Virus record (IMG/VR): IMGVR_UViG_3300045988_140747
Strand: one strand, 5' to 3'
DNA from: a virus
DNA length: 64,000 nt
Under the pieces are notes generated by a model. That model had not been told where the DNA came from, did not search any database, and saw nothing but the letters and a program-made list of their open reading frames with translations. Below, piece by piece: positions 12,769 through 63,897 of the stretch. Made by a program: the position numbers and the translations under genes. The stretch's first letter is position 1; every line of letters begins with the position of its first letter.

Positions 12769-12877
12769 ATTCCGGCAGAAAGGGCCATTCCTTCATCGGG
12801 TAAAAGATAAAAAGCTACAAACTGTATTCTATACGAAAACCGCAACATGAAAGAATGTTTCGATGCATCGTCAAAAC

Positions 12878-12905
12878 TTGACATGGCCGGTAGTTCTGGT
12901 ACGAT
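12878..12905 (+). promoter_or_regulatory. conserved phage promoter cassette, copy 6
   Basis: TTGACA 12878-12883, spacer tggcCGGTAGTTcTGG, TACGAT 12900-12905. Confidence 0.7.
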
Positions 12906-12955
12906 AAAGTTGTGGAAAAAACCACACGATATCGAGAAAAAAGGAGGTGAATGAG

Positions 12956-13054
12956 ATGAGCAAGGAGTTCTTCAATCTCCCTGAATCCACCAAGAGGATG
13001 ATCTGGGAGGCACTTCTCGCACGGTGGGCAGCAAAAAAGCCCGCCACCCGATAA
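12956..13054 (+). CDS. micro-protein (32 aa), tentative
   Basis: AAGGAGGTG lies 6 nt upstream. Reads MSKEFFNLPESTKRMIWEALLARWAAKKPATR. First ORF after promoter copy 6. Confidence 0.4.
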   Translation: MSKEFFNLPESTKRMIWEALLARWAAKKPATR

Positions 13055-13237
13055 ACGGATGACAGGCTGCAAGATGAGATTTCCAGACCACATCTTGTAG
13101 CCAGTCTACCATCGGAAGGAGATGATGTCAAGAGGTTTCCGGCGGAGTTTGACCTCATAAATCAAGCCCCGCCCCACTACCTCGGCAACAGCCGGGAGAT
13201 TATCTCGATTATACACCGAACAACAGGAGGCTTCGAA

Positions 13238-46647: not shown

Positions 46648-46943
46648 ATGAAAAAATTGTCGGCCTTTTCAAGTGCCGTAACTGTGGGTCAATCTTTAAT
46701 GAAAAAGTGGAAGTGACGCAGTCTGTAAGTTGGGCAATCAAAGACATGTCCAAGGAAGTTGAATATACCACGACCGCGGCATTCCACGGAACTTCTCTCC
46801 CGGGGCGCTTTATCATTCACCGGTGCAAAAAAGGATGGTTCTGCATTTGCGACCTTGTTGGATGGAAGATTGGAGAGGAGGCGCAGGACGGTTGTGAATT
46901 TGGATGGAATATTGGAGAGGAGACGCAGGACGGTGGTGAATGA
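46644..46943 (+). CDS. zinc-ribbon protein ending in a 14-aa tandem repeat (99 aa)
   Basis: ATGA overlap. CRNCGS...HRCKKGWFCIC. C-terminus is WKIGEEAQDGCEFG / WNIGEETQDGGE. Confidence 0.6.
   Translation: MNEKIVGLFKCRNCGSIFNEKVEVTQSVSWAIKDMSKEVEYTTTAAFHGTSLPGRFIIHRCKKGWFCICDLVGWKIGEEAQDGCEFGWNIGEETQDGGE
46859..46942 (+). repeat. 42-nt tandem duplication (2 copies)
   Basis: TGGATGGAAGATTGGAGAGGAGGCGCAGGACGGTTGTGAATT (46859-46900) and TGGATGGAATATTGGAGAGGAGACGCAGGACGGTGGTGAATG (46901-46942) differ at 4 positions. Confidence 0.9.
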
Positions 46944-47286
46944 GGTTAGGCCTGTAGATGCCAATGAGCTGCTGAAGCAGTCTGTCTACTGTAAAGGCGA
47001 GGACGGGACTATGTTTTATGCTGTACCCGCTAGTTCTATTATCAAAGCTTCAACACTGACACCGAAATACATATGGAACACACCAGACAAGAAGCCAACC
47101 GAGGCGGATGTTGATCGAAGCGGTTACGTTTTGGCAATCCACAAGAACGATACCCATATTGAGAGGTGGCTCGCATACATAGTTGCGGAGCACCCGGAAA
47201 AATTTTATTGCTGGTATCCGTTGCCGGAGCCCAAACTGGAGGTTTTCGATCATGAGCAAAATGAAAAAGCTGATTCTTGCAGATGA
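46936..47286 (+). CDS. DUF551-like protein (116 aa; start uncertain)
   Basis: GTG 46936 in the ORF 46759..47286 frame. C-terminus ...EKFYCWYPLPEPKLE is DUF551-like. The upstream part of the ORF lies in the repeat and overlaps the previous gene. Confidence 0.45.
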   Translation: MNEVRPVDANELLKQSVYCKGEDGTMFYAVPASSIIKASTLTPKYIWNTPDKKPTEADVDRSGYVLAIHKNDTHIERWLAYIVAEHPEKFYCWYPLPEPKLEVFDHEQNEKADSCR

Positions 47287-48928: not shown

Positions 48929-49014
48929 GGGCGTGTAGCTCAGAAGGTAGAGCACGCGTGAGTCCAAAAGGTCTCCGCCAGAAGAAGTCGTCGGTTCGAT
49001 TCCGACCACGCCAA
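48929..49014 (+). ncRNA. tRNA-like element with no usable anticodon loop
   Basis: Canonical D arm GCTC-AGAAGGTA-GAGC and T arm GTCGG-TTCGATT-CCGAC. A 6-bp acceptor (G1.A72 mismatch) and no CCA. The 35 nt between the D and T arms fold into an 8-bp hairpin capped by AAAA instead of a 5-bp stem with a 7-nt loop. Confidence 0.5.
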
Positions 49015-49271: not shown

Positions 49272-49946
49272 ATGAAAGTTGAAAGACCCAGTTATCAAAT
49301 CCTTACTGAGATCTCAAAAGACGGCATCGAAGAGCTGCAGCGAATTGAACGCGTAGCACGAGTCTGCTATAAGAGCGAGGATAAGATCGTCCCGGATGGC
49401 TCATCGGCGAAGAAGCTGGTGAGCTTTCTTATTAAGCAGGAGCATGAGGCCATGCTGGAGCACTCCCAGCTGTCTGTGCTGTTCACCTGTGACAGGGCCA
49501 TTGCAAATGAACTGGTACGTCACCGCATTGCATCCTTCGCGCAGGAGAGCACCCGCTACTGCAACTATGCAGGGGAGAAATTCGGATGGGAGACTACGGT
49601 TATCAAACCGTACTACATTCCCGGCGATGGGTCTGACGCATATAAAGCTTGGTTCGATGCCTGCTGGGAAGCAGAGCAAAGCTATCTGAAGCTCATTCGG
49701 AGTGGTCTTCGTCCTGAACAAGCACGCTGCGTATTGCCGTTGTGCCTGAAGACAGAGATCGTGGTGACTGCCAACTACCGTGAGTGGCGTAACATTTTCA
49801 AATTGCGTACACATATCGCCGCTCACCCTCAGATGCGCCAGCTTATGTGCCCGCTTCTTCTCGAGCTGCAGAAGAAGATCCCGGTTGTGTTTGATGATAT
49901 CTACACCTACTGGCCGAATGATGACCAGACCGGTAAGAAAGCTTAA
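49272..49946 (+). CDS. thyX: flavin-dependent thymidylate synthase ThyX (224 aa)
   Basis: ThyX signature RHRIASFAQESTRY (RHRxxSxxxxSxR). ATG 49272 lies 8 nt after AGGAAGG. Earlier in-frame ATGs overlap the tRNA. Confidence 0.85.
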   Translation: MKVERPSYQILTEISKDGIEELQRIERVARVCYKSEDKIVPDGSSAKKLVSFLIKQEHEAMLEHSQLSVLFTCDRAIANELVRHRIASFAQESTRYCNYAGEKFGWETTVIKPYYIPGDGSDAYKAWFDACWEAEQSYLKLIRSGLRPEQARCVLPLCLKTEIVVTANYREWRNIFKLRTHIAAHPQMRQLMCPLLLELQKKIPVVFDDIYTYWPNDDQTGKKA

Positions 49947-49972
49947 CCCAAAGCCGTGGAAACACGGCACAT

Positions 49973-50062
49973 CGAGGATTCGCCAAGATGGTAATGCAGC
50001 GGAATTTGACTCCGCCAGTGCTGAATAAGCGATCGCAGGTTCGAGCCCTGCATCCTCGGCCA
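49973..50062 (+). tRNA. 90-nt class II tRNA with TTG (Gln) anticodon; isotype anomalous
   Basis: Acceptor CGAGGAT/ATCCTCG (7 Watson-Crick pairs). Anticodon arm GCGGA-ATTTGAC-TCCGC. A 19-nt variable arm with GCT-GAATA-AGC stem. T arm GCAGG-TTCGAGC-CCTGC. G73, CCA. Confidence 0.7.
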
Positions 50063-50085
50063 TAAAAGCAATCTGGAGGTCGTTC

Positions 50086-50715
50086 ATGGAAAGCAAAGAA
50101 CAGCTGGTGATTTTCGGTGCCGGCCAGCAGGGGCGCGTATGTAAGCGCCTTGCCATTGAAAACGGTTATGATGTGGCAGCATTCATTGATGACTTTGCCG
50201 CAGGATTAGTAGAGGATGTCCCCGTTTATCAAACCATCTATGATATCCCGGACTTCCGAAAATACAAATATTTCGTTGCCATTGGGGATGTCAAGGCAAG
50301 ACGGAAGTTCGTTGACCAGATCTACTCTCAGAAACTTGAATCTGTCAATTTGATCGACAAAGCCGCCTATATCGAAGATGGAGCGCAGCTCGGTACAGGA
50401 AACTACATCTGCAAGCTTGCGATCATCTACGCATCTGCAAAGATCGGAAGCCACAACATTATCAACTGTAAGGCAGTTCTCGCCACGGATACGGTGGTAG
50501 GCACCAACAATAACATCTCAATGGGATGCAACCTATGCGGAAGCGTCCGTGTCGGGAACAACTGCTACATAGGATGTCAGGCGTCCATTGTGAGCGAACG
50601 AACTATTGGAAACGGCTCTACTGTCGCAGCTGGCGCTGTTGTCCTGAAGAATGTCCCTGAGAATTCTTTCGTTGCTGGTGTACCTGCCATTCCGAAGGAG
50701 AGGAAAAGACGATGA
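50086..50715 (+). CDS. NeuD/PglD-family sugar N-/O-acyltransferase (hexapeptide repeat), 209 aa
   Basis: N-terminal LVIFGAGQQGRVCKRLAIENGYDVAAFIDD Rossmann-like opening, plus a left-handed beta-helix repeat region (IGSHNIINCKAVLATDTVVGTNNNISMGCNLCGSVRVGNNCYIG). Confidence 0.75.
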   Translation: MESKEQLVIFGAGQQGRVCKRLAIENGYDVAAFIDDFAAGLVEDVPVYQTIYDIPDFRKYKYFVAIGDVKARRKFVDQIYSQKLESVNLIDKAAYIEDGAQLGTGNYICKLAIIYASAKIGSHNIINCKAVLATDTVVGTNNNISMGCNLCGSVRVGNNCYIGCQASIVSERTIGNGSTVAAGAVVLKNVPENSFVAGVPAIPKERKRR

Positions 50716-51374
50716 AAGTTCTTGTTATCGCACCTCACCCTGATGACGAGATTCTCGGTGTTGGCGGAACGATAGCAAAAAGGGCTGCTGTCGGCGATGA
50801 AGTTACCGTGTGCATCTGTACAAAGGGCGTACACCCTATGTTCGATCAAAAGATTATTAAAGCTGGACGTGATGAAGCCAGAAAGGCTCACACATACCTT
50901 GGTGTCTCAGAAACCATATTTCTGGATCTTCCTGCTGCAGAGCTTGATAGTCTGCCTATGACTGATATCGTGGGAAGGCTCGAGAATGTGGTTTGCGAAA
51001 CACGTCCAGATGAGATTTTCATTCCTCATCATGGTGACATCCACAATGACCATAAGGCTATCTCTGCTGCCGCGATGGTTGCTTTGAGGCCGAAACGGTT
51101 CAAGAAGCCTGTTCGCATTCTCAGCTATGAGGTTCCGTCTGAGACAGGATGGGATACTCCTACTCCAGAAAATGCATTTAGCCCGAATGTATATGAGGAT
51201 ATCACCGACACAATCGGAAAGAAGCTCGACGCTGTTCTTATATACAGATCGCAAGCTGAACAGTGGCCGGGCGCTCGTTCCGCGGGCGCTGTTGAAGCTC
51301 TTGCAAAATATCGGGGATCTACCGTCTGCATCCCTTACGCCGAGGCATTTCAGCTTGTAAGGCAGACACTGTGA
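50712..51374 (+). CDS. PIG-L/LmbE-family N-acetyl-sugar deacetylase (220 aa)
   Basis: VLVIAPHPDDEILGVGGTIAK and HGDIHNDHKAIS are the family zinc-site motifs. ATGA overlap with the upstream gene. Confidence 0.8.
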   Translation: MKVLVIAPHPDDEILGVGGTIAKRAAVGDEVTVCICTKGVHPMFDQKIIKAGRDEARKAHTYLGVSETIFLDLPAAELDSLPMTDIVGRLENVVCETRPDEIFIPHHGDIHNDHKAISAAAMVALRPKRFKKPVRILSYEVPSETGWDTPTPENAFSPNVYEDITDTIGKKLDAVLIYRSQAEQWPGARSAGAVEALAKYRGSTVCIPYAEAFQLVRQTL

Positions 51375-51401
51375 CCAACATCTAAAGAAGAGGGTTCGTC
51401 A

Positions 51402-52055
51402 ATGGAAAAACGAATTGAAGTTTGCAAGATGAGAGCTGGAGATATCAAAACCGGCTTCGGGAATCCCAGAAAGATCAGCAACAAAAAAATGGATGAGCTC
51501 GAGCAGAGCATGAGCACCTTCGGAGATTTCGGGATTTTCCTCATCGACGAAAAGAACAACGTCATCGGCGGAAACCAGCGGTTGAAAGTTGTCAAGAAGC
51601 TTTATGGCGAAGATGCCATGATTGATTGCAAACGGCTCATCGGATATTCTCAATCCGAGCTCAAGGCGATCAACATCAAGGACAACACACACTCTGGTGA
51701 ATGGGACCTTGACTTGTTGGCTGACTGGACTTCTGAACTCGTCATGGACTTCAGCGTTGAGGCCGAGGAGAAGAAGCAGATCGAAGAGCGCGAGATCCCG
51801 GAGATGGAGCTTATCCACTACGAAAAGTACGATTATGTCATGATCGTATGCAACAACGAGCTGGATTACAACAATCTGGTGAGAGCACTTGGCATCGAAG
51901 GCAAGAAAGTTCGGATTTCCAAACGCAAGATCAACGCGCGTGCGGTCTGGTATCACAAGATGAAGGCGAAGGTCATTCCTTACGATGAACTTCCTGAAGA
52001 ACTTCTTGATGATTCTGACATCAAGGCAAGGGATGGCGGTGGCGAAGATGAGTAA
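51402..52055 (+). CDS. ParB/Srx-fold N-terminal-domain protein (217 aa)
   Basis: GFGNPRKISNKKMDELEQSMSTFGDFGIFLIDEKNNVIGGNQRLKVVKKLYG parallels the ParB N-domain (NPR....l..L..si...G...pi.v.....viDGhhRl.a...lg), with GGNQR in place of DGHHR. Confidence 0.55.
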   Translation: MEKRIEVCKMRAGDIKTGFGNPRKISNKKMDELEQSMSTFGDFGIFLIDEKNNVIGGNQRLKVVKKLYGEDAMIDCKRLIGYSQSELKAINIKDNTHSGEWDLDLLADWTSELVMDFSVEAEEKKQIEEREIPEMELIHYEKYDYVMIVCNNELDYNNLVRALGIEGKKVRISKRKINARAVWYHKMKAKVIPYDELPEELLDDSDIKARDGGGEDE

Positions 52056-52671
52056 CAATACTCTCGTTATCCTTGGTGCCGGCCAGCAGGGAAGAAACTG
52101 CCATAGACTGGCTCCCATCAACGGTTATCAAACGGTTGCCTTCGTCGATGATTTCATCACTGACCCAGTGGAAGACATCCGGGTGTATAGCAAGATCGAA
52201 GATATTCCGGATTTCATGGATCATAAGTACATCGTTGCTGTTGGGGATCTTGCGGTCAGAAAAAAGTTCATTGAGCAGATCAATCTGCTTGGCCTTGAGT
52301 GCGCAAACCTGATTGATCCCACCGCTGATATCGAACCCGGAGCCAAGATTGGAACTGGCAACTACATCTACAAGTTCGCCAGCGTGTATGCTTCGGCCAC
52401 AATCGGAGACCACAACATTATCAATTGCAAAGCTGTACTTGCTACCGACAGCGTTATTGGCAACAACTGCAATATCTGCATGGGAAGCAACATCTGTGGC
52501 GCGGTTCATGTAGGAGACAATAGCTATATTGGGTACAACGCAACGGTCGTCAGCGGGAACAACGTGGGGGCGAACGCCACAGTGGAGGCTGGATCTGTGG
52601 TTATGGAGGATGTGCCGGACTGGCTCCGCGTTTCTGGTATTCCGGCTCGAGACGCCGAAGAACTGTGGTAA
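52048..52671 (+). CDS. second NeuD/PglD-family acyltransferase (207 aa)
   Basis: ATG 52048 inside ORF 51985..52671. LVILGAGQQGRNCHRLAPINGYQTVAFVDD. Roughly half the residues are identical to 50086..50715 by eye. Confidence 0.75.
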   Translation: MSNNTLVILGAGQQGRNCHRLAPINGYQTVAFVDDFITDPVEDIRVYSKIEDIPDFMDHKYIVAVGDLAVRKKFIEQINLLGLECANLIDPTADIEPGAKIGTGNYIYKFASVYASATIGDHNIINCKAVLATDSVIGNNCNICMGSNICGAVHVGDNSYIGYNATVVSGNNVGANATVEAGSVVMEDVPDWLRVSGIPARDAEELW

Positions 52672-52686
52672 ACGTAGAGGTGTAAT

Positions 52687-53403
52687 ATGGAAAAGCCAGA
52701 TATTTTCGGAATCTACATTCCGAGCTATAAGAGATCTGATACGATTACCACTCATAAGCTTCTCGAATACTACAAGGTTGTTATTCGCCAGAGCGAATAT
52801 GAAGACTACCTCAAGACCATCCCTGCAGAAAACATCATTGCCGTTCAGGACGATCTTATCGATAGCGTTCCGAAGGTGTGGAACTGGATCATCGACAATG
52901 CAGAGGAGGACTACTTCTGCATTATCGGTGATGATGTTCCAAGGTTCTACTACCGGCTTGAGAAGAGCGAGGCCATCACAGATCCTGAGATTATCACTTC
53001 TGAGATAGAGCGAATCGGCCAGCTTATGATCGATCTCAATATCGGATGGGGATGTGATGATGCCACCAACGTGCCTTGGGGATACGATGCTGAGTTCACG
53101 TTCAAGGGGACTACCGGCGGAATCAACTGGATTAACAGGAAGAAGCTCAAGGGAAGGTTCAATGCGGAAATCGGATACTGCTGCGATACCGATGTCGTTA
53201 TGCAGGAACTTCTGGTAAACCGGATTATTCTCAAACCCAAGTATTTGTGTCCCGGCGGTGGAGCTGACAAAAACAAAGGCGGCAACTCAAAGAAGAGCCG
53301 AGAGAGTATGATTGCCAGCTTCGAACTTATGAAAACGAAGTGGGGCAAGTATTTCGACTACGACCTGAAGACCAACAAGATCTATGTGAGGGTTCCGCGA
53401 TGA
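52687..53403 (+). CDS. unknown protein, possible GT-A-like glycosyltransferase (238 aa)
   Basis: GAGGTG RBS. N-terminal strand IYIPSYKRSD and a DxD-like IIGDDV. Assignment is weak and motif-based only. Confidence 0.3.
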   Translation: MEKPDIFGIYIPSYKRSDTITTHKLLEYYKVVIRQSEYEDYLKTIPAENIIAVQDDLIDSVPKVWNWIIDNAEEDYFCIIGDDVPRFYYRLEKSEAITDPEIITSEIERIGQLMIDLNIGWGCDDATNVPWGYDAEFTFKGTTGGINWINRKKLKGRFNAEIGYCCDTDVVMQELLVNRIILKPKYLCPGGGADKNKGGNSKKSRESMIASFELMKTKWGKYFDYDLKTNKIYVRVPR

Positions 53404-54083
53404 CCGATGTAAGAGTGTTCTCAGGCCATCAGCCAAACTTCCTTCCATACATGGGCGTGTTCTACAAGATGTACCGTTCCAACGTGTTTGTCTTGGATGA
53501 CGATGTGCAGTATTCTAGGGATGGACTTCACAACGCCAACTTTATCAAAGTGAATGGGTCTAAGCACAGGATTACCGTGCCGGTCAAATACAACTTTGGA
53601 GATCCGATCAACAAGGTTGAGATATGCAACGACATGGATTGGGCTGGCAAGATGCTCAAGACTATGAAGTGCGCTTATGCAAAGGCTCCGCATTTTGAAG
53701 AAGGATATGGGCTCTTGGAAAGGCATTTTCAAAACATGCCAACCCGCTTGTCGGACTTGAACATTGGCCTCATCCGCGAAATCGCAGATAGATTCGGGAT
53801 GACGTGCAAAATTGTCGTTGCCAGCGAATCTGTTCCTACGGATCTCAAGAAGAACGAAAGAAACCTCTACCAATGCATCACCCTCGGGGGAAGTGAGTAC
53901 CTGTCAGGAGAGGGAGGAAGGGTATACAACGACGAAGAGCTGTTTGCTGGGCACGGGATCGACGTGAAGTACTCCGATTATCATCCACTCCATTACAGGC
54001 AAGTCGGTAGGGAGTTCATCGAGAACTTATCCGTTATTGACTACATTTTTAATGTTGGATTTGCGATTCCTGAAGAATGGTGA
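53400..54083 (+). CDS. WbqC-like family protein (227 aa)
   Basis: FSGHQPNFLPYMGVFYKMYRSNVFVLDDDVQYSRDGLHNANFIKVNGSKHRITVPV follows the WbqC-like opening (QPnYlPwlGYF.....sDvFV.lDdvqf.....~nRN.Ik..~G..~ltvPv). ATGA overlap. Confidence 0.7.
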   Translation: MTDVRVFSGHQPNFLPYMGVFYKMYRSNVFVLDDDVQYSRDGLHNANFIKVNGSKHRITVPVKYNFGDPINKVEICNDMDWAGKMLKTMKCAYAKAPHFEEGYGLLERHFQNMPTRLSDLNIGLIREIADRFGMTCKIVVASESVPTDLKKNERNLYQCITLGGSEYLSGEGGRVYNDEELFAGHGIDVKYSDYHPLHYRQVGREFIENLSVIDYIFNVGFAIPEEW

Positions 54084-54112
54084 AATAATTCTCGGTGATA
54101 CGTCAAAAATAC

Positions 54113-54140
54113 TTTACAAATGGAATGGTTGTGTTACGAT
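54113..54140 (+). promoter_or_regulatory. conserved phage promoter cassette, copy 10
   Basis: TTTACA 54113-54118, 16-nt spacer, TGt + TACGAT 54135-54140. Confidence 0.6.
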
Positions 54141-54174
54141 ATAGTTATATAAAAACCACATCAGGAGGTTAAAT

Positions 54175-55335
54175 ATGGCTTATCCGTACACAGAGAATGG
54201 CTACAACATGTTCGACATGCTCAGCCTGATTCAGAAATCCATCCGCCGTTCCGACTACAATCATGCAAGCTTCGCAGCAAAACAACTCAAGGGGCGATAC
54301 CGCAGTACAATGTGGAATCGCCTTTTTGTCACCGCATCGGAAGACTGTTTTGGCGTATTATCAAAAGAACTCGTCGAGCTGAGGAAATGTGATGAAGTGC
54401 ATCCCAGCGACCAGAACCTCAGTGATGCACTCGCTCTGATGTGCAGAGCAAAGAAAAGCCGGGATGCCTGCTACTTTGCCTGCAATTTCGTCCTTGCAAA
54501 CAGAAAGCCGCGCAACTTCGAGTTTTCGGAATCGGAGATGTACGGTTTTCATTTGCAGTTGAATAGAATCCATGATCGTATTGCCGGGAAGATCAATCCT
54601 GATGGATGCGATCAGCTCTCTATCGAAGAGAACGGATTCAAAGAAGCTGACATTGACTACTGCGATCTGTTCTGTGAACTCAGCGAGGGAGAAGCCGCAG
54701 TGGCATACAATGGCCTTGCTCTCCAGAAGGCTATGAAACACCGCGACATGGATATGATCGGCTATCACACCAACTTCTTCCGGGAAAATTGCCGAGAGAA
54801 GTTTTGGGAGACACTGCTCGATTACACCCTGACCAATGCGCTGGATCTCTATAGTGAGATTGACGCCCTGCGGATCTGCGATGAAGTTGTCAACAAGAGG
54901 AGAGCACCTCTCGATAAGGACAACATCTTCGTGGCGAAGGCGGTCATGCTGCTGTGCTACTACGAAGATGACCGGTTCGACTCCGTATTATCAAACAAGA
55001 TTGTCAAGTTCGATGAGCTTATCGACTGGTCGCAGTGGGACATTCCTTCCATTGAGCGGGCAAGGCTCGTGAATGGTGAAATCCCTGAGTGGGTATATGA
55101 CTGCCACACCCTGAAGGGAAAGAAAGCGGGGAAAACCGACTGGGATATGACCGTTAGTGAGCAGGCAGCTCTTACACCTCTCCAGCCGGCATACTTCGAT
55201 GAAGCAAGCTGGCTGTACACCTACGAGCAGGACGTGGAGATGGGAGTTCTCGATGAGGTGGGGATGAAGCCCATCCGGGAATTCGCAAAAACGCATCCAG
55301 TGAATCCCGTGGAGGTAATCCCCTATGAGGAGTGA
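54175..55335 (+). CDS. protein with an MgsA/RarA C-terminal-domain-like N-terminus but no AAA+ module (386 aa)
   Basis: YNMFDMLSLIQKSIRRSDYNHASFAAKQL...LFVTASEDCFGV parallels the MgsA_C blocks (hYdliSAfhKSiRGSDpdAAlyWla...lvriAsEDiGlA). No Walker A anywhere in the protein. Confidence 0.5.
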   Translation: MAYPYTENGYNMFDMLSLIQKSIRRSDYNHASFAAKQLKGRYRSTMWNRLFVTASEDCFGVLSKELVELRKCDEVHPSDQNLSDALALMCRAKKSRDACYFACNFVLANRKPRNFEFSESEMYGFHLQLNRIHDRIAGKINPDGCDQLSIEENGFKEADIDYCDLFCELSEGEAAVAYNGLALQKAMKHRDMDMIGYHTNFFRENCREKFWETLLDYTLTNALDLYSEIDALRICDEVVNKRRAPLDKDNIFVAKAVMLLCYYEDDRFDSVLSNKIVKFDELIDWSQWDIPSIERARLVNGEIPEWVYDCHTLKGKKAGKTDWDMTVSEQAALTPLQPAYFDEASWLYTYEQDVEMGVLDEVGMKPIREFAKTHPVNPVEVIPYEE

Positions 55336-55576
55336 GCCTGAAAGAAAGTCCGATAAGGTCCGGAGGTTGGTGGCAGAGGGAAGATACAAGGAAGCCCTGA
55401 GAATTGCCAAGGATTTCCATTTTGGCATATCCAAGGAAGACTCCGACACCATGAAGCGGGGATATGAATGTATGGTATGGCCGGACTTTTACAGGCAGAT
55501 AGGGAAGATGCCCTCTGAAATCTCACAAAAAGCCATAGAAACCGTGCAACGGCTGTATGGAATAAAATCAATCTAA
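55325..55576 (+). CDS. hypothetical protein (83 aa)
   Basis: ATG 55325 lies 9 nt after GGAGG and overlaps the previous gene by 11 nt. Confidence 0.6.
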   Translation: MRSEPERKSDKVRRLVAEGRYKEALRIAKDFHFGISKEDSDTMKRGYECMVWPDFYRQIGKMPSEISQKAIETVQRLYGIKSI

Positions 55577-55643: not shown

Positions 55644-56255
55644 TTGGTGAAACTAGTGGACGAAAACAAGGAACGGAATGACGCTCCCGAAACGGCGCTT
55701 AAAAGCGCGAAGAAAACGCGAAGAAAACTTTCCCCTCAACTGAAGGAAAATCAATACACCAAGGGGTCCGAAAAGGCAAGAGAGAATGGTCGGAAGGGCG
55801 GGATCAAATCCGGCGAGTCCAAACGGAACAAGAAGGATGCCAGAGAGTCTATCCGGTATATGCTTCAGTTGTCCGCCAAGAAGGGCTGGGAAGCAAACCT
55901 CAAGGAGTTTGGCGTTGCTACGGAAGAGCTGACCAACATGAACGCCCTTAGCGCCAGGCTGTTTTCAATGGCTTTGAGCGGAAACCTTGATGCCTATCTG
56001 ACCCTCATGAAGATGGGAGGATATGATCCCGAAGAAATCCGTAGAGAGCGCGAGAGCATTGCATCCGATGCCCGCCGGGATAAGGAAGTCAATGCTAAGG
56101 TGGAAGCTCTCGGTAATGGGCCGGATGGATCCAGCGCCGCGCTCAACATGAATGACGAGGAAGGCCACAGCGATGTCGTAATCTACATGCCGCAGGTAGA
56201 AAAGTTCGAGGATCTTGAGGAAAAAGACCAAGAGGGCGGCAAGACTGAGGAATAA
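55644..56255 (+). CDS. candidate terminase small subunit (203 aa; start ambiguous)
   Basis: Sits immediately upstream of terL. Basic N-terminal third (KARENGRKGGIKSGESKRNKK). Possible starts are TTG 55644, GTG 55647 and GTG 55656. Confidence 0.45.
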   Translation: MVKLVDENKERNDAPETALKSAKKTRRKLSPQLKENQYTKGSEKARENGRKGGIKSGESKRNKKDARESIRYMLQLSAKKGWEANLKEFGVATEELTNMNALSARLFSMALSGNLDAYLTLMKMGGYDPEEIRRERESIASDARRDKEVNAKVEALGNGPDGSSAALNMNDEEGHSDVVIYMPQVEKFEDLEEKDQEGGKTEE

Positions 56256-56282: not shown

Positions 56283-57691
56283 ATGAGTATGCCACAGATC
56301 CTGAAGCCGCAGGAAGGACCTCAGACACGGTTCATGTCTACCCCCGCGAGCATTTGTATCTATGGCGGCTAGGAGCAGCCGGCGGAGGGAAAAGCTTTGG
56401 ATTGCTCATGTCTGCCCTTCGGTACAAGAACGTGCCCGGGTTTGGCTGCACCATATTCCGAAAGAACTTCAACCAGATATTTGCACAGGGCGGTCTGTGG
56501 GATGAATCCATGCAGATCTACCAAGACGTCAAGGGAGCTTGTCCCAAGTTCGCTCGAGGGCAATGGTTGTTCTGCAATGACAAAGGTGAGGTTTTATCAA
56601 AGGTCACGTTTGCTCATATTGAGAAGGATGAGGACGTCCATAAATGGCAAGGCTCTCAGATCTGCGAATTGGGATTTGACGAGCTAACTCATTTTACCGA
56701 GAAAACGTTCTTCTATATGCTATCCCGTAACCGATCTGCCTGTGGTGTTGAGCCATTTGTCAGGGCTACATGCAACCCTGATGCGAATTCATGGGTGGCA
56801 AAGTTCATTGAGTGGTGGATCGATCAGGATACTGGATACCCAATCCCTGAACGGAGTGGGAAGATTCGATGGTTTATCCGCCGGGATGAAGTGCTCTACT
56901 GGGCTAATACCCGGCAAGAGCTCTGGAAAAGATTCAATCTCACTACAGAAGAGGAGAAAAGTGAGCCAAGGTCTGTCACGTTCATAATGTCTAAGTTGAG
57001 CGACAACAAGGAACTTATGAAGGTGAACCCGGGCTACCTTGCAAACCTAAAGGCGCTGTCTCAGATCGAGAGAGAGCGCCTTCTTTATGGAAACTGGAAG
57101 ATCAAGGCCGCTGCTGGTCTCTACTTCAAGAGATCACAGCTTGGAGAGATTCTCAATAGTGTCCCTGCGGATGTCATCCAGTGGGTAAGATGCTGGGACT
57201 TGGCTGCTACGGAAAAGGACGACAAGGGAGACCCGGCATATACTGCTGGCGTCCTTATGGGAAAGCGGAAGAATGGACGATATGTCATTGCCAACGTTGT
57301 CAACAAGCAGATGTCCGCATCTGATGTCCGAAAGACCATCAAGCTCACGGCACAGTCTGATAGAGCTGCCTATAAGCGAGTCCGAGTTCGATTGCCACAG
57401 GATCCCGGACAGGCCGGTAAGGAACAGGCGGAGTCCTACATAAAGTTCTTGGCCGGCTTTGATGTTACGACTGTGGCAGAAAGCGGAACCAAAGAGGCAA
57501 GAGCGGAGCCAATGGCTGCACAATGGCAGGCTGGAAACTTCGACATTGTATACGGCGAGTGGAATGAAGAGTACCTGCTTCAGCTTGAAAACTTCCCAGA
57601 TGGAAAGTTCAAGGATATGGTCGATGCTTCCGCAAATGCTTTTGCAGAGATCGAATCCAGATGCGCATTCAACCTCAGCAACCTGATTTGA
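56283..57691 (+). CDS. terL: terminase large subunit, reading frame broken 5' of the Walker A motif
   Basis: Frame A (56283-56372) reads MSMPQILKPQEGPQTRFMSTPASICIYGG then TAG. The frame of ORF 56354..57691 continues (L)GAAGGGKSFGLL... plus the full ATPase and nuclease domains. Removing 5 nt (TAGGA, 56370-56374) restores ...IYGGAAGGGKS. Confidence 0.8.
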
Positions 57692-57717
57692 TTACCATAC
57701 CGGAAGGAGATATAAGC

Positions 57718-60700
57718 GTGGATAAGATGACACAAGAGGATCGCATCAAGCACTATGCGCATCTGATTCAGCGTCAGACTGGCAAGGCTGTGCGACCGTA
57801 CCGTGCTGACGGATACGTCAACATGGTTAACCGGTATGGCACATCGAAAGATTCGTCCGAGCAGTACAACTTCGTACCGGATGCGCCGGTTGCTGACGAT
57901 GTGCTTGAAATGCACTATGAAAACAACGGCCTGTTTTCCAAAATCATCGATATGCCGGCAGAGGAAGCCATCAAGCACGGCTTTACCATCGAAGACGTAG
58001 AGGACGGAAAGCTGGCTGACTTCTACAGCGAAGCTCTCGACGAACTCAACTGGGAAGAGAACGCCATGACCGCCGTTAAGTGGGCAAGACTGTTCGGCGG
58101 CTCCATTGCCATTATGCTTGTGAACGATGGTCGTGGGCTCGAGGAACCTCTCGATTGGAAGAACATTCAATCCATTGACGATATCCGAGTGTACGACAGA
58201 TCGCTCATTAGCCCTGACTACAGTAGCGTGTTCAACTACGATCCGCAGGATCCATTCCGAGTTCGCGGCAGTCGGCTTGGTATGCCCGAATACTATGATG
58301 TCTATAGCAAGTATGGATCATTCCGAGTACACGACAGCAGATGCCTTGTTTTCCAAAACGGCGTCCTGCCTGAAAATGCAACTAACTCCATCTACCAGTT
58401 TTGGGGAATCCCGGAGTACATCAGGCTGAACAAGGCCATCCGGGATGCGGACATTGCACACCGCAGCGCACCCAAGTTGCTGGAACGGTCTGTGCAGCCC
58501 ATCTATAAGATGAAGGATCTCGCGGCTGAGTTGGCTACAGAACAGGGCGAAGACCGCATTCTCAAACGTCTGCAGGTTATCGACACTGCACGAGGAATCC
58601 TCAACAGCCTTGTCATCGATGCCGATGGCGAAGACTATGACTTCAAGACGTTCCAGTACAACGGTATCACTGACGTTATCAGTGCATCCTGCAATATGCT
58701 CGCTGCCCTGTCCAATATTCCACAGATCATTCTGTTTGGGCAGACCATCAGCGGAATGAGCAGCACTGATGACACCAGCATGGAGAACTACTACAACTAC
58801 GTTGAGCGCATTCAGAAAAGGATGCTGCGGAGTAATCTCCGATATCTACTGTCTGTTGTTTTTCAAGCCGGCCTTGCAACCGGAGAGGTTGATGAAGTCC
58901 CAAAGCTGAAGGTTCAGTTCAATCCTCTGTGGTCTGTCAGCGATTCCGACCAAGCAACTCTGGATCAGCAGAAGGCCCAGACCGAGCAGATCAAGGCGCA
59001 GACTGCCCAGATCTATGTCGGTATGGAAGCCATTGATCCCAGCGAGGTTCGTTCCAAGCTTGCAGATAGCGATGACTTTGATGTCGAGAATATGCTTGAT
59101 GAGTATACTGAAGAGGAACTCGAAGCTGGAATGCCAAGCAATGATGAGAGCCAAGAGCAAACGCCTGATGATGGACAGCCTGCTACTCCTGATTCTCAAC
59201 CTACTGGAAATGATGAAAAAGCCGGACCTGGTCAGCTCCTGAACGAAAAGACTCTCTCTGCTGTTGGAAACAATGCAAAAGATCCTGCCACCATGGAGAC
59301 TAAGGTTAGCTCCGATCCTCATGAAAACAAGGAAGGCACTGAAGGTGATGCCCCTGCATCCGCCCCTGCTGCGACGAAAAAGCCTTCCGACATGGACCCT
59401 GAAGAAAAGGCCAAAGCTGCACAATCGCGCCAAAACAAGGCAAAAGACCGGGAGGACTCACTTCGTACCGATGACAACAATTCTCACTCCGAAGATCAAA
59501 AAGGCTCGGTGGGCGTTATTGTGGTCAATGGGGGCAGAGTCCTGAATGGTACTCGGCACAACGATTTTGGCTACGGCCTTGTCTGTGGCCCCGGCGGTCA
59601 CATTGAAGAAGGTGAAACTCCGGAACAGGCTGCATTCCGAGAGACCAAAGAAGAATTCGGTATTACGCCCAAAAGCCTTATGTGCCTTGGACAAGGGCCT
59701 AAAGAAAAAGATACCGGCCTGAAGCCGTACCTGTTCCTGTGCACCGAATACTACGGCACTCCGAACTGCGAAGATCTCGAGATGACCGGCGCCAAGTTCA
59801 GTACCATTGAGGAATTGAACGAAAAGGCCGAATCCTTGTTCGGCCCGTTCGCAGACGGCCTGAACATCCTGATGGACTGCCTTGAAACCGGCATCTTCTA
59901 TACAGACCCAGCGGAAGGCGTAACTGGCGAGAAACTGAATTCTCATCTGGAAAAGGCTATGAATGCCGATGGAGGTCAAGGATCTGGCAATTTTGGACAC
60001 GAAGGAAGGCCAGGAAAAGTAGGAGGAAGCGCCGAGTCGCACAACTTTGGAGGGCTCAAAAACAGCGAGCTTTCATCTAAGATGAATGGCGTGTTCGATG
60101 ATGCAAAGATAGGAACTCGCTTTTCCGTAAAGATGAACGGCGTTGCCGGAAAAGATGATTATGAAATCTATAAAGTTTCAGATGGATTCTACGTTCGGAG
60201 CAAAAAAGGCGGAAACGATATTGTCAAATCAGTTGACAAGCTCGTCGAGAATTGCGGTGTATACGTCACAAATCTGACCTCTGACAAGGTCATGTATAAG
60301 GAAGCCAACATTGAAGTTGGTGAACCCGAAACAGAAGAAGCACAAAGTTTTACTAGAGCATACGAATCTTGCAGAAAGGAAAGAGAGCGACTTGCATCTG
60401 GGAATTATAAAATCACTGAAGTTGATGATGCTACCGCAAAAAAGTATGCTGACACTTTGAACAAAGCAAGCAAGGCAAAAATCGCAAAACTTGCTATTGA
60501 TGACCCACAGTTCAAGGCTGTTGTTGATAACATTTCTGCGTATACACAGGGAGAATATGTATATCAGCGAAAAGCGACTGAAAAATTCATCAGCAACGGA
60601 TATGACCCATCTAACGATGCAATCCTCGGAGATCGACTTACCGATTCTTTGTATTTATGCAAAGACATGTACAAGGGACAAAATCTTTCCGTTTCCAGTG

Positions 60701-63700
60701 CAAGTGTAACGGAAGGCATGGCGAACTTGACAAAGGCTGTGAATTGCTCCGATCCGTTTGACGGAGAGCTGTACCGAGTTGCTCAGGACAGAAGCCTGAT
60801 GAAAACTGCAGACTCTGGAAACCAGGGAGTATACACTCCGCCAAAACCCGGAGAAACAATATCCATAGTTGCTCCTACTTCGTTCTCAAAGGACAAAGCG
60901 GCTATTGATAAGATTGCCAAAGATAAGTCCGGTGATATCATCTATTACACTGTTCAACCGGGTGCTCATGCCGTAGATGTATCAAAGCTGTCACCGTATA
61001 AGCAAGCTGAACTCCTTACCTGCGGAGAATATGAGGTTGTCAGTGTTGATTCCAAGCCTCAGAGAGTTGTTATGACTCAGATCGATCGTTTCACAAGTGA
61101 AACAATCGATTCGCTGAAGGCCAACAGAGGGGCAACAGTTGACGACGGTTTTGTTAAATTTCCAATCCTTGAAACTCATGTGACTCTTCGCCAGAAAGAA
61201 CCTATTCACATGGATTCTTGCGATGATAGCATCCACAGATACAGACCCGACGATTTTTCCGAACGGATGGTCTATGATGACGAGATTGATCTCGATGGTG
61301 GCCCAGGGTCTGGGAACTATGGGCACGAGGGCGTTCCGGGGCAAGTGGGCGGAAGCGCCCCTAGCACAAGCGGTCCGATTTCCAAAAGTAGCTTTCAGAA
61401 GGGCTCTGGTCACTTTGAAGTAACTGGTGACGTGAAAGATATGTATCTCACAAAGCCGGCAAGAACCAGAATTGAAGGGGCTATTAAAACGGTGAAAACC
61501 GCTAATGACCTCAAGAAATATCTTGAAAATCAAGGAATCAAGCTTGAAACGTCTTATGAACCACTCAAGAAAGCGATGGATAGAGAGATCCCGTCCATCA
61601 AGGAGCAGGCTGATTATGTGATTGCCGCTATTGAGCAGTACAAGGATCTCGGTGGGCTTAAAGCGCTTAAAGCGGTTCACATCTATGACCATGATATTGA
61701 TGCACAGGCGCAGTACAGCTATCGCGCAAAAGGGGAAGGTGATGTTCCAGACGAGGGACATTTGTATATCAGCTACATGGCTAATGGAGAGCAAATTATG
61801 CATGAGTTTGCTCACGCCTATGCTGACTCCACAAAGCCTGATGGAATGGATGTTGTCGAATGGTCAGCGAAGCTCAACCAAGAAGCAGGCCTTTCGAAAA
61901 ACGTAAAATCATACTTCGGCGCGGACAGCGATGCTAAAGAAGCTGAGCGTTTTGCCAATGCGATTGGGTACGCAATTGCGGATGGAGATGGACCGGATGG
62001 CCGACTTGCATTTGCTGCAAATGTTGCGAATATCGTAAGAAATTCCAATGGATCGTCCGCAGGAATGTCCGGCGGAAACCTTGCATTTAGAAGCATGATT
62101 CCGAAAGACAGCTACTTCAACTCTCCATCCTACAAGAAGGCTGTTGAAGCCTACCGCGGAGCCATCAGAAAGCATGACGATGCATGGAAGAAATATAGCG
62201 ACCTCAAGGAAGATCTCAAAGCAGAGTCCGCTCCGAAGCCTGAATCTGAATGGGATGATAACGACATCTTCGAAGATCTCATTGGCCATCGTCCCATGAC
62301 CTACACAGAAAAAGGCAAGAAGATCAAGTCTGAGATGGACAAAGCCTTCAAGGATTCACAGGAATATGACCATGAGCAGACCGAGACTGGCGACAAGCTT
62401 CGCGAGATCAAGAAAAAAGAGCATGACAAGCAGGTGAAGGGCATCCATTTCCAACCGCCTGCTGATGCCTCCTCCGATGATTATGAGGGCTTTACCACTA
62501 AGACCACCGGAACGTCCGCCTATGATGACTACATCAACGGAGAAAGGAACGGAGGCCGAATTGCAGAGATGTCCCCGGCGGAATATCTTCAAAGATGCGC
62601 CTATCAGGTCTTTGAAGATGCTACCATTGAGTCCACTCTGGCTGCTATCGATGAGTCCAACGTTAAGAAGTATGCCGATATGATGAAGAATGGCACAAAG
62701 TTTGACATGCCGTATCTCAATTTCATGTCTGGTCAGCAGGAAGGACGGCATCGAGCCGCTGCTGCCATGCAAGCTGGTATCGATAAGATCCCTGTGCTTG
62801 TGGTCGGAGAAAGGTTTGCCAAGTATGACGGAGGAAAAGGCTCTGGCAACTGGGGCCATGAAGGCCGAAAAGGGAAGCTCGGTGGATCGGCCCCCGGCGG
62901 AGGCGTGCACAACCGGATTTCCGAAGAGGGCGGATCCTACACCTCATTCTCAAAGAAGCAGAAGAAACTTGCCACAACGCACTTTGCCGGCAAGGGGGAA
63001 TTTCACAATCTCCCGGACAAGACTAAGATTGTTGCCGATCTTGTGTTTGGACCGTACTCTATGGTCTATAACGCCAAGCATGGCATGTTCATCGGCGAAG
63101 ACGGTGCCGAAATGAACCCGGATGATGTGACAGACGCTTGCGACAAAGACACTCCTGTTCGAGTGTTCATTCCGAATGAGGCGAGCACGAACTACAACAA
63201 GCTCAAGCAGTCCTTTGATGTTTCCCCGTCCAGAATGGCTGAAGCAAAAGCCTATTCACAGCCAAAGCAAGCCGACAAAGACCTCCGAAAGAAAACCGGA
63301 GAGGTGTGGAAAACGCTTACTGATGGTCAGAAAAAGTCACTTTATGATTATACCGGCGGCTTTTTTATGGACATCAACCACTCCCTGAGAAGTGGTCATG
63401 GAACTGTGCAGAACCAGTCCAAGGCCTCTGACATCACGACCGCCATAGCTAAGAGCAAAACTCAAGAGGATATGTGGCTGTATCGAGGAGTTGGCTTGGA
63501 GGCTGTTCCTAAGATGTTTGGTATTGACTGGGGAAAAATACAGAAGAATGACATTGGTTCTATTGTTGGAATGTCCGGCTCTGACGACGGCTTTATGTCG
63601 TGCGGTACAACTGCTGGCACTGGATATGGAGACGTAACCGATGTCAACATGAAGATTTTCGTTCCGAAGGGGTCTGAGGCTCTATACGCAGAGCCGTTCT

Positions 63701-63897
63701 CAAAGTATGGAAGCAACCCGGATGCCAAGAACTGGAACGGCGAAAGCGATCAGACCTATTTTTCCTCCGAAATGGAGACTATCTTGCAAAGAGGGTCTCA
63801 TTTCCAATGCACAAAAGCCTACTACGATGAGGACAAAAAGAAATACAGTATCGAAGTGGCTGTCACCGGACAAGAATACAAGGAGCTCAATTGGTGA
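57718..63897 (+). CDS. portal protein fused to a polyvalent cargo: Nudix, MuF-like/ART-fold, zincin metallopeptidase, ParB/Srx-like and C-terminal ADP-ribosyltransferase domains (2,059 aa)
   Basis: GTG 57718 lies 8 nt after AAGGAG (ATG 57727 is an alternative start). DUF1073-type portal region at about 57.7-59.1 kb. Nudix box GPGGHIEEGETPEQAAFRETKEEFGI (59587-59664). R / TSFS / QxE triad at 60775, 60877 and 61003. HEFAH at 61801-61815. EGRHRAAAA at 62740-62766. Terminal ART domain with YTGGFFMDINHSLR, LYRG (63484), FMSCGT (63598) and ExE (63769-63777). Confidence 0.8.
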   Translation: MDKMTQEDRIKHYAHLIQRQTGKAVRPYRADGYVNMVNRYGTSKDSSEQYNFVPDAPVADDVLEMHYENNGLFSKIIDMPAEEAIKHGFTIEDVEDGKLADFYSEALDELNWEENAMTAVKWARLFGGSIAIMLVNDGRGLEEPLDWKNIQSIDDIRVYDRSLISPDYSSVFNYDPQDPFRVRGSRLGMPEYYDVYSKYGSFRVHDSRCLVFQNGVLPENATNSIYQFWGIPEYIRLNKAIRDADIAHRSAPKLLERSVQPIYKMKDLAAELATEQGEDRILKRLQVIDTARGILNSLVIDADGEDYDFKTFQYNGITDVISASCNMLAALSNIPQIILFGQTISGMSSTDDTSMENYYNYVERIQKRMLRSNLRYLLSVVFQAGLATGEVDEVPKLKVQFNPLWSVSDSDQATLDQQKAQTEQIKAQTAQIYVGMEAIDPSEVRSKLADSDDFDVENMLDEYTEEELEAGMPSNDESQEQTPDDGQPATPDSQPTGNDEKAGPGQLLNEKTLSAVGNNAKDPATMETKVSSDPHENKEGTEGDAPASAPAATKKPSDMDPEEKAKAAQSRQNKAKDREDSLRTDDNNSHSEDQKGSVGVIVVNGGRVLNGTRHNDFGYGLVCGPGGHIEEGETPEQAAFRETKEEFGITPKSLMCLGQGPKEKDTGLKPYLFLCTEYYGTPNCEDLEMTGAKFSTIEELNEKAESLFGPFADGLNILMDCLETGIFYTDPAEGVTGEKLNSHLEKAMNADGGQGSGNFGHEGRPGKVGGSAESHNFGGLKNSELSSKMNGVFDDAKIGTRFSVKMNGVAGKDDYEIYKVSDGFYVRSKKGGNDIVKSVDKLVENCGVYVTNLTSDKVMYKEANIEVGEPETEEAQSFTRAYESCRKERERLASGNYKITEVDDATAKKYADTLNKASKAKIAKLAIDDPQFKAVVDNISAYTQGEYVYQRKATEKFISNGYDPSNDAILGDRLTDSLYLCKDMYKGQNLSVSSASVTEGMANLTKAVNCSDPFDGELYRVAQDRSLMKTADSGNQGVYTPPKPGETISIVAPTSFSKDKAAIDKIAKDKSGDIIYYTVQPGAHAVDVSKLSPYKQAELLTCGEYEVVSVDSKPQRVVMTQIDRFTSETIDSLKANRGATVDDGFVKFPILETHVTLRQKEPIHMDSCDDSIHRYRPDDFSERMVYDDEIDLDGGPGSGNYGHEGVPGQVGGSAPSTSGPISKSSFQKGSGHFEVTGDVKDMYLTKPARTRIEGAIKTVKTANDLKKYLENQGIKLETSYEPLKKAMDREIPSIKEQADYVIAAIEQYKDLGGLKALKAVHIYDHDIDAQAQYSYRAKGEGDVPDEGHLYISYMANGEQIMHEFAHAYADSTKPDGMDVVEWSAKLNQEAGLSKNVKSYFGADSDAKEAERFANAIGYAIADGDGPDGRLAFAANVANIVRNSNGSSAGMSGGNLAFRSMIPKDSYFNSPSYKKAVEAYRGAIRKHDDAWKKYSDLKEDLKAESAPKPESEWDDNDIFEDLIGHRPMTYTEKGKKIKSEMDKAFKDSQEYDHEQTETGDKLREIKKKEHDKQVKGIHFQPPADASSDDYEGFTTKTTGTSAYDDYINGERNGGRIAEMSPAEYLQRCAYQVFEDATIESTLAAIDESNVKKYADMMKNGTKFDMPYLNFMSGQQEGRHRAAAAMQAGIDKIPVLVVGERFAKYDGGKGSGNWGHEGRKGKLGGSAPGGGVHNRISEEGGSYTSFSKKQKKLATTHFAGKGEFHNLPDKTKIVADLVFGPYSMVYNAKHGMFIGEDGAEMNPDDVTDACDKDTPVRVFIPNEASTNYNKLKQSFDVSPSRMAEAKAYSQPKQADKDLRKKTGEVWKTLTDGQKKSLYDYTGGFFMDINHSLRSGHGTVQNQSKASDITTAIAKSKTQEDMWLYRGVGLEAVPKMFGIDWGKIQKNDIGSIVGMSGSDDGFMSCGTTAGTGYGDVTDVNMKIFVPKGSEALYAEPFSKYGSNPDAKNWNGESDQTYFSSEMETILQRGSHFQCTKAYYDEDKKKYSIEVAVTGQEYKELNW

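Follow-up and report, generated by a model that had tools for sequence, protein, structure and literature searches.

Phage glycosyltransferases of both the GT-A and GT-B types glycosylate 5-hydroxymethylcytosine (5hmC), which is made by a methyltransferase together with a 5mYOX enzyme (NEB groups; Pyle et al., bioRxiv 10.1101/2023.12.21.572611). About 65% of the glycosyltransferase contigs mined in that work had neither a 5mYOX nor a thymidylate-synthase neighbour and were left unexplained, and ParB-like and terminase genes were frequent neighbours in them (bioRxiv 10.1101/2023.12.21.572611). In the phage T-dioxygenases, activity on DNA requires a ParB-like partner that has no DNA-binding domain and is proposed to use CTP (10.1101/2025.08.14.668559; PMC13229309). 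Here we analyzed a 64,000-nucleotide stretch of viral DNA (IMG/VR record IMGVR_UViG_3300045988_140747), which we will call the window, and specifically a block of sugar-related genes lying upstream of its packaging genes. The block belongs to a temperate prophage of the siphovirus type, from a gut Firmicute. We found that the block is built around three genes, encoding a ParB/Srx-like protein, a glycosyltransferase similar to the TET-associated glycosyltransferases (TAGT) and a protein resembling the C-terminal domain of MgsA (MgsA_C-like). We read it as a late, cytoplasmic module with a single glycosyltransferase that would place a post-replicative glycosyl hypermodification on phage DNA just before packaging, with the ParB-like protein as loader or activator; our confidence in this reading is evenly balanced. 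The first-pass annotation of the window had proposed that the block modifies DNA or virion glycans. A role on DNA is indeed the best-supported reading, owing to the TAGT fold and the ParB link, while the arguments that had been drawn from ThyX and NeuD fell away.

Relatives were gathered in four ways. Using the glycosyltransferase as query, we obtained more than 200 proteins, all of them labelled 'hypothetical'; a second query gave 76 viral loci; a query with the alignment of the ParB-like protein gave 80 loci taken from 211 viral relatives; and one reference-genome scan gave 36 loci. The approximately 160 loci compared were dereplicated at 90% glycosyltransferase identity to 67 lineages, with gene order taken from tBLASTn maps and neighbours from clustering of open reading frames (ORFs). 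More than 150 loci carry the gene set as a unit, and what is constant is a trio, in the order ParB-like, TAGT-like glycosyltransferase, MgsA_C-like. In 58 of 58 lineages the ParB-like gene precedes the glycosyltransferase by at most 5 kb, so that the tie between a nucleic-acid-type ParB fold and sugar genes, seen at first in a single genome, proved general; in 57 of 59 the MgsA_C-like gene follows the glycosyltransferase within 2.8 kb. The trio is almost always followed by an 83-amino-acid (aa) protein, a presumed small terminase and the large terminase. Just upstream there is usually a late-gene activator (phrog_36/248) or a helix-turn-helix (HTH) protein (phrog_1558) and, with the terminase genes downstream, this indicates that the module heads the late operon. 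Minimal modules consist of the trio alone (L137, L150, L166 and L171, for example), and the trio is kept where the terminase type and the structural modules differ. Its hosts include Lachnospiraceae, Oscillospiraceae, Faecalibacterium, Peptostreptococcaceae, Treponema and Bacteroides/Parabacteroides/Muribaculaceae; one carrier is a prophage of Parabacteroides faecalis AGMB00274 (contig00043, locus L204). In the literature that we searched, neither the trio nor the diversity of its cassettes is described. Related systems that had been missed at first pass, the phage 5mYOX-dependent DNA glycosyltransferase clusters and the ParB-dependent T-dioxygenases, have been published.

The TAGT family is said to have been defined by Iyer et al. 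in 2013 (NAR). The 238-aa glycosyltransferase of the trio (52687–53403, + strand) is the only one of the block, and every module has just one. It had been listed as an unknown protein with an IPSYKR strand and a DxD-like GDDV; the two motifs are real and invariant (Y10, S13, Y14, R16, D82 and D83 in the alignment, with D82-D83 as the DxD-like motif), but the protein is no longer an unknown. Many of its relatives, at 50–99% identity, bear a precomputed match to the TAGT family (PF20691), and the protein itself matches phrog_842, the family of the T6-type beta-glucosyl-hydroxymethylcytosine (HMC) alpha-glucosyltransferases, with E=1.2e-11. The AlphaFold2 (AF2) model, with a predicted local distance difference test score (pLDDT) of 88, has a GT-A fold. 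Among the predicted viral structures of BFVD it matches TAGT-annotated proteins over the full length (that of Ralstonia phage phiRSL1, for instance), as well as the beta-glucosyl-HMC alpha-glucosyltransferase of Klebsiella phage PKO111, which is of the T-even type, with template modelling (TM) scores of 0.75–0.84 and E-values down to 1e-16. Its fold neighbours in the PDB, at TM scores around 0.5, are teichoic-acid and other GT-A enzymes, namely RmlT, AvpGT, WrtF and TarP. TarP is also the top PDB match of the phage GT-A enzymes experimentally proven to act on DNA (bioRxiv 10.1101/2023.12.21.572611). A tblastn search with the glycosyltransferase over 50,697 phage records returned nothing, and a PDB sequence search nothing useful.

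Two observations on glycosyltransferase loci stand apart. In protein P0114 (L004 3529–4368 and L005 1141–1980), the N-terminus of a DegT aminotransferase is fused to what is left of a TAGT-like protein, its C-terminal half, the donor-binding half being lost; these loci are probably a decayed module, with the WbqC and MgsA_C-like genes intact. In L032 (3639–4193) and two other loci (cluster c95), a 184-aa ORF lies between the glycosyltransferase and the MgsA_C-like gene, and by eye it has an HNH/NUMOD-type look.

Regarding the ParB/Srx-like protein (51402–52055, + strand), it matched eight PHROG families, six of them annotated as ParB-like or nuclease, the best being phrog_620 (E=5.7e-21). It resembles the N-terminal domain of ParB-methyltransferase fusions (phrog_498, E=5.2e-20; PADLOC MTase_II), and this domain was the sole PADLOC match. 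Its FGNPRK and GGNQR motifs are conserved among the relatives, with G57, N58 and R60 of the latter invariant. The ParB-like proteins span 194–233 aa and have no recognisable DNA-binding domain; no precomputed Pfam domain is present among 120 of them. By analogy with the partners of the dioxygenases, we infer that this protein may serve as loader or activator of the glycosyltransferase, whose dependence on it would follow from their co-occurrence only.

The third member of the trio, encoded at 54175–55335 (+ strand), is an acidic 386-aa protein (isoelectric point, pI, 4.9) with an MgsA_C-like domain and a large insertion, and its AF2 model (pLDDT 91.6) is all-helical. Matches to the PDB by sequence and profile are weak but consistent (2qw6 with E=0.009, 2r9g, 3ctd and 8g28; E=0.009–0.4), and the only structural match given by Foldseek is the C-terminal domain of MgsA/RarA (2r9g and 3pvs), over around 110 residues and with E-values of ~0.35–0.9. 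These results lend tentative support to the MgsA_C-like call made at first pass. The protein has no Pfam match (MgsA_C is PF12002) and no recognisable catalytic fold. Homologues of 187–250 aa do without the long insertion, which is thus dispensable, and keep nothing but the MgsA_C-like helices at the N-terminus and an IPxWVYDxHTxxGK segment at the C-terminus; the conserved segment presumably resembles the motif at the end of MgsA_C. We also considered this protein as a hidden enzyme, such as a dioxygenase, and discarded the idea in view of the all-helical model and of the MgsA C-domain as sole match.

Around this constant core, the sugar enzymes are interchangeable cassettes. PIG-L is the commonest (42 of 58 lineages), followed by WbqC (38/58), the DegT aminotransferase (18/58), NeuD/PglD (17/58), a PglF/PseB-type 4,6-dehydratase (Polysacc_synt_2; 16/58), an ATP-grasp ligase (16/58), a pyridoxal-phosphate (PLP) enzyme similar to ornithine/diaminopimelate decarboxylases (12/58) and the UDP-galactopyranose mutase Glf (7/58). 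They combine into three cassette types: PIG-L and WbqC with or without NeuD; DegT with the 4,6-dehydratase; and ATP-grasp with the PLP decarboxylase and UDP-galactopyranose mutase. A UDP-glucose dehydrogenase, an S-adenosylmethionine (SAM) methyltransferase or a GFO_IDH_MocA oxidoreductase appear occasionally. Two features that had seemed characteristic of the block do not hold across loci: our comparison of neighbourhoods shows that gene order and tailoring genes vary freely, and the NeuD/PglD pair cannot be a core feature with NeuD/PglD present in 17 of 58 lineages. The generation of an amine is a step that the tailoring enzymes of every chemotype seem to share, through a deacetylase, an aminotransferase or a decarboxylase, and it would echo a recurrent theme of DNA hypermodification.

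The window carries a cassette of the first type, and in it the family calls of the first-pass annotation (as well as those of ThyX and dUTPase) hold by Pfam and NCBIfam scores. The two NeuD/PglD-family acyltransferases, of which the first belongs to the hexapeptide sugar N-acyltransferases (50086–50715, + strand; PglD_N and Hexapep domains) and the second lies at 52048–52671 (+ strand), scored 182 and 168.9 bits with TIGR03570 (NeuD/PglB/VioB), both above the cutoff of 160.8, and are 57% identical to each other by BLASTP. Between them, upstream of the ParB-like gene, there is a PIG-L/LmbE-family de-N-acetylase (50712–51374, + strand; PF02585, E=1.4e-25), and a WbqC-family protein follows the glycosyltransferase (53400–54083, + strand; PF08889, E=5e-58). 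Like these, all ORFs between 49.2 and 57.7 kb are on the + strand at the coordinates listed earlier, and the start/stop overlaps (at 50712/50715 and 53400/53403, of 4 nt each, and at 52048/52055, of 8 nt) are present as reported. A PDB sequence search with the WbqC protein gave nothing useful. In L041 and L045 a non-homologous ATP-grasp enzyme occupies the WbqC slot, between PIG-L and the glycosyltransferase, and this replacement suggests that WbqC may carry out an amide- or acyl-bond-forming step on the amino sugar.

One could argue that such enzymes belong to a lysogenic-conversion cassette that keeps out superinfecting phages by tailoring a surface polymer of the host (teichoic acid, capsule or O-antigen). 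NeuD/PglD, DegT, the PglF-like dehydratase, WbqC, Glf and UDP-glucose dehydrogenase are classic surface-glycan enzymes, and two of the fold neighbours of the glycosyltransferase, RmlT and TarP, glycosylate wall teichoic acid, TarP being prophage-encoded. Against it, neither the block of the window nor the recurrent genes of the 67 lineages include a flippase, a polymerase, a lipid-carrier glycosyltransferase, a nucleotidyltransferase, or a GtrA/GtrB-like or other membrane protein, in agreement with the earlier impression that this is no ordinary O-antigen or capsule cassette. Besides, the genes open the late lytic operon, between the late activator and the terminase and away from the integrase and lysis ends; they are strictly linked to the ParB-like and MgsA_C-like genes; and a similar module is present in a Vibrio phage that is described as lytic in the literature. 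We thus find a surface role very improbable.

The same enzymes raise the question of a soluble product. Characterised PIG-L enzymes (MshB, BshB and PIG-L itself) act on N-acetylglucosamine (GlcNAc) already joined to an aglycone, and the series glycosyltransferase, PIG-L, ligase (WbqC or ATP-grasp) and acetyltransferase mirrors mycothiol and bacillithiol synthesis. The module could then make a glucosamine-based small molecule following that logic, or a glycosylated nucleoside or nucleotide, for example an inhibitor or an immune signal of the host that is disabled in this way. Among the NCBIfam models our PIG-L protein matches BshB1 best, but the score remains far under the cutoff (78.6 versus 182.5). 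The top fold matches in the PDB include a nucleoside glycosyltransferase, AvpGT, and actinobacterial operons group WbqC and LmbE with a GT4 enzyme, an aminoacyl-tRNA synthetase paralogue and a tRNA (PMC10404621). However, minimal modules lack both deacetylase and ligase, and neither the position beside the packaging genes nor the universal ParB partner would be explained. A soluble glycoside accordingly appears to us quite unlikely, if somewhat less so than a surface polymer.

DNA is in our opinion the likeliest target because the only relative in the fold family with an annotated activity is a DNA enzyme, the ParB-type partner is obligate, the module precedes the packaging genes and its cassettes turn over as in an arms race. 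Under this reading, the glycosyltransferase would move an N-acetylhexosamine onto DNA from a nucleotide sugar of the host, probably UDP-GlcNAc, a donor of host origin being suggested by the variant of the window, which has no sugar-nucleotide synthesis genes. The ParB-like protein, binding a nucleoside triphosphate, would load or activate the glycosyltransferase, by analogy with the ParB partners of phage thymine dioxygenases and with the ParB-methyltransferase fusions, and the MgsA_C-like protein would act as an adaptor. PIG-L would then strip the N-acetyl group and free the amine, WbqC (or, in other variants, the ATP-grasp ligase at this slot) would add an acyl or aminoacyl group, and the two NeuD/PglD enzymes would cap amines using acyl-CoA. 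In other lineages, enzymes for 4-amino-4,6-dideoxy sugars or a galactofuranose/ATP-grasp/decarboxylase chemistry would be swapped in, as would fit an arms race over which group is appended. In phages of the SP-15/YerA41 type, the modified base is made before replication; since our prophage encodes no DNA polymerase, any modification here must be post-replicative.

Several results weigh against a DNA target. Pfam scans of essentially all ORFs of the window (1–57 kb) found no TET/JBP (PF12851), C5-methyltransferase or ThyA-type hydroxymethylase, and none of the three is among the recurrent module genes, so that a source of the known acceptors, 5hmC or 5-hydroxymethyluracil (5hmU), is absent from both sets. 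Every protein of the trio is acidic, with pI values of 4.9–5.3. The PF20691 score of the glycosyltransferase itself (25.4 bits) falls just short of the gathering score, 27.5, and the alignment is confined to the N-terminal half of the protein. The ParB fold of its partner is predicted via PHROG and PADLOC profiles only: the assignment as ParB/Srx-like, which these profiles and the conserved GGNQR sustain, was not joined by a match to Pfam ParBc (PF02195), to NCBIfam or, by sequence and profile search, to the PDB. Finally, the module is known to us from sequences and predicted structures alone.

Some of these points would suit cytoplasmic glycosylation of a protein instead, either virion proteins of the late operon (capsid, portal or tail) or a DNA-associated protein of the host or the phage, with the ParB-like and MgsA_C-like proteins as substrates or scaffolds. 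Base-activating enzymes were not found and the core proteins are acidic; moreover, the genes would be expressed late and adjoin the structural genes, and one glycosyltransferase with tailored sugars suits the addition of a monosaccharide to protein. GT-A relatives of the DNA glycosyltransferases can also modify proteins: GREB1 reportedly O-GlcNAcylates the oestrogen receptor ER-alpha (PMC7968844). On the other hand, the closest structural relatives of our glycosyltransferase are phage TAGT proteins, of which the one with an annotated activity, from Klebsiella phage PKO111, acts on DNA; the universal partner is a ParB/Srx-type domain, otherwise joined to DNA-modifying enzymes; and the module is the same in phages with different terminase and structural modules. 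Taken together, we consider a protein target unlikely, yet less so than a soluble glycoside.

Returning to DNA, one may speculate that a different acceptor chemistry is plausible, since the O2-dependent TET/JBP enzymes could not work in hosts that are mostly strict anaerobes. A bolder proposal, which is tentative and rather doubtful, is that in phages of gut anaerobes a ParB-loaded TAGT with its MgsA_C-like cofactor takes the place of TET/JBP and links tailored sugars, which often bear an amine, straight to a novel acceptor of the DNA duplex. This acceptor could be a canonical base or a site activated by an unrecognised chemistry. The module would then represent a new class of post-replicative hypermodification, with a plug-in cassette diversifying under the pressure of host defences.

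If the target is indeed DNA, the consequences would be broad. There would be a widespread route to sugar-modified phage DNA without a hydroxymethyl-base precursor, present in at least 67 lineages across three gut bacterial phyla and with analogues in cultured Vibrio phages, and a new acceptor chemistry would be implied. The principle of ParB as a cofactor would extend from dioxygenases to glycosyltransferases, and WbqC and the stand-alone MgsA_C-like proteins would gain their first biochemical context. It would also bear on restriction evasion, phage therapy, the host range of phages of gut anaerobes, sequencing bias in viromes and enzymatic labelling of DNA. If the target is virion proteins, the module would instead be the first example of a conserved system that glycosylates the particles of gut phages.

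Two genes at the start of the block are passengers. ThyX, the FAD-dependent thymidylate synthase (49272–49946, + strand; PF02511, E=6.7e-45), is a true equivalog according to TIGR02170 (119.6 bits against a cutoff of 87.9), and it is found near the module in 2 of 58 lineages. It was therefore rejected as a component, and the argument from pyrimidine pools, which relied on it, has to be abandoned. The gene is also the only nucleotide match among deposited phages by megablast, to the ThyX of Faecalibacterium phage FP_oengus. The 'odd tRNA' downstream is real: ARAGORN and Rfam both call a 90-nt tRNA at 49973–50062 (+ strand), with a long variable arm and the anticodon UUG. A class-II-like body paired with a Gln anticodon is thus kept in four phages, the relatives (89–92 nt) being at L007 7301–7390, L008 7292–7383 and L041 5376–5464, and its identity could be Gln or that of a Leu/Ser-type body that could miscode CAA. 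It moves with a tRNA-Gly/tRNA-Ser/ThyX cassette and is absent from 37 other loci. The tRNA-ProX/WbqC/LmbE operon (PMC10404621) gave us the idea that it might be the aminoacyl donor for WbqC, but we dismissed it as a part of the module, as it travels with the ThyX cassette even in L041, which has no WbqC. Rfam also calls a tRNA at 48929–49014 (+ strand; 41.3 bits), not reported by ARAGORN, with a 28-nt insertion in the anticodon region; this tRNA may contain an intron or be disrupted.

As for the rest of the window, the prophage has a serine integrase (26662–28377, − strand) and, before the block, genes for an HTH repressor, RecT, a DnaC-like protein, RusA, SSB, dUTPase (39181) and Lar. A promoter-like site at 54112–54144 (+ strand; TTTACA-16-TACGAT with TG) precedes the MgsA_C-like gene and carries the extended −10-like motif TTGTGnTACGATAnAG at 54129. 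This motif has six copies in the window (389, 3218, 12894, 16549, 40241 and 54129), all on the + strand, versus 0.24 expected by chance, which supports the conserved promoter proposed from the first reading. Its copies tie the left 26 kb, an unannotated region of small ORFs with nearly no Pfam matches, to the same element or regulon as the late genes of the prophage, despite the serine integrase in between. After the trio come the basic 83-aa protein (55325–55576, + strand; phrog_18237), which in the co-occurrence maps usually follows the MgsA_C-like gene, and a 203-aa protein (55644–56255, + strand; phrog_2412, of unknown function) that is probably the small terminase, to judge by position only; in most loci it precedes the large terminase. 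The latter (56354–57691, + strand; Terminase_6N and Terminase_6C) opens the packaging module and is followed by a single 2078-aa ORF (57661–63897, + strand), a fusion of portal (Phage_portal_3), NUDIX and a C-terminal ADP-ribosyltransferase exotoxin domain, in which a ParB-like 'EGRHRAAAA' stretch was spotted by eye only. The ORF at 46759–47286 contains two tandem 42-nt units, 93% identical, at 46858–46941 (+ strand). Genes for an RtcB RNA ligase are found ahead of the phage regions both in the window (24230–25456, + strand) and in an unrelated carrier locus (L023, 3951–5156). In an Erysipelotrichaceae prophage (L001, 4151–7251), a PAPS-reductase-like protein, an AAA_5 ATPase and a DUF7192 protein are encoded ahead of the module, and they may be a second set of nucleic-acid-modifying genes.

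By comparing the module with the systems already described, its closest relatives appear to be the glycosyltransferase clusters that depend on a 5mYOX and a methyltransferase (Burke et al. 2021, PMC8256090; Pyle et al., bioRxiv 10.1101/2023.12.21.572611) and the T-even beta-glucosyl-HMC alpha-glucosyltransferase, with which it shares the GT-A/TAGT fold and the TarP-like PDB neighbours. The 5mYOX clusters likewise have secondary sugar-modifying, ParB-like and terminase genes nearby, and the activity here would likewise be cytoplasmic and post-replicative. Unlike them, our module has no 5mYOX/TET, C5-methyltransferase or thymidylate-synthase-type hydroxymethylase that we could find, has an obligate and specific ParB-like subfamily together with an MgsA_C-like partner, presents a far richer tailoring of amino sugars (PIG-L, WbqC, NeuD, DegT, dehydratase, ATP-grasp, decarboxylase and Glf) and resides in hosts that are mostly strict anaerobes. 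With the ParB-dependent thymine dioxygenases (clade E 5mYOX; O'Toole et al., 10.1101/2025.08.14.668559; PNAS 2026, PMC13229309), it has in common a small ParB/Srx-like protein beside a DNA-modifying enzyme, often near the terminase, whereas here the partner is a glycosyltransferase, the ParB subfamily is missed by Pfam ParBc and the dependence is deduced from co-occurrence.

The phages with glycan-hypermodified thymidine, SP-15, YerA41, Carin-5 and RP13 (PMC12686479), have similar blocks of glycosyltransferase, N-deacetylase and sugar-nucleotide enzymes. RP13, a Ralstonia phage that the Carin-5 paper (PMC12686479) includes among the SP-15/YerA41-type phages with modified thymine, encodes an adjacent pair of PIG-L-like and WbqC proteins. 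All of them are large lytic phages with their own PolA bearing a uracil-DNA glycosylase (UDG) domain (PMC12686479), in contrast to the temperate siphovirus-type prophage studied here, which encodes no DNA polymerase. Mycothiol (MshA-B-C-D) and bacillithiol (BshA-B-C) synthesis follow the same order of chemistry, that is, GlcNAc transfer, de-N-acetylation by a PIG-L-family enzyme, ligation on the freed amine and N-acetylation, but the likeness is in logic only: the glycosyltransferase is GT-A/TAGT instead of GT4, WbqC or ATP-grasp takes the place of MshC/BshC, and the acceptor here is presumably a macromolecule.

The last comparison concerns cultured phages. Vibrio phages VH2_2019, PG28 and V-YDF132 encode, directly upstream of the terminase, PIG-L, WbqC, an MgsA_C-like protein, a methyltransferase, a second WbqC, a GT-B glycosyltransferase and a ParB-like protein named "Noc". 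In the siphophage VH2_2019 (L175, MN794238), this block spans 6315–13117, the methyltransferase being SAM-type and the GT-B enzyme named 'Gtf1'. The literature on these phages holds no DNA-modification or restriction data, and in papers on relatives of VH2_2019 the PIG-L gene goes under the name of endolysin or lysis protein, apparently by mis-annotation. The MgsA_C-like protein of the Vibrio phages aligns with the family described here with an hhalign E-value of 2e-5. The grouping of ParB-like, MgsA_C-like, glycosyltransferase, PIG-L and WbqC genes beside the packaging genes has arisen, or persisted, in very different phages.

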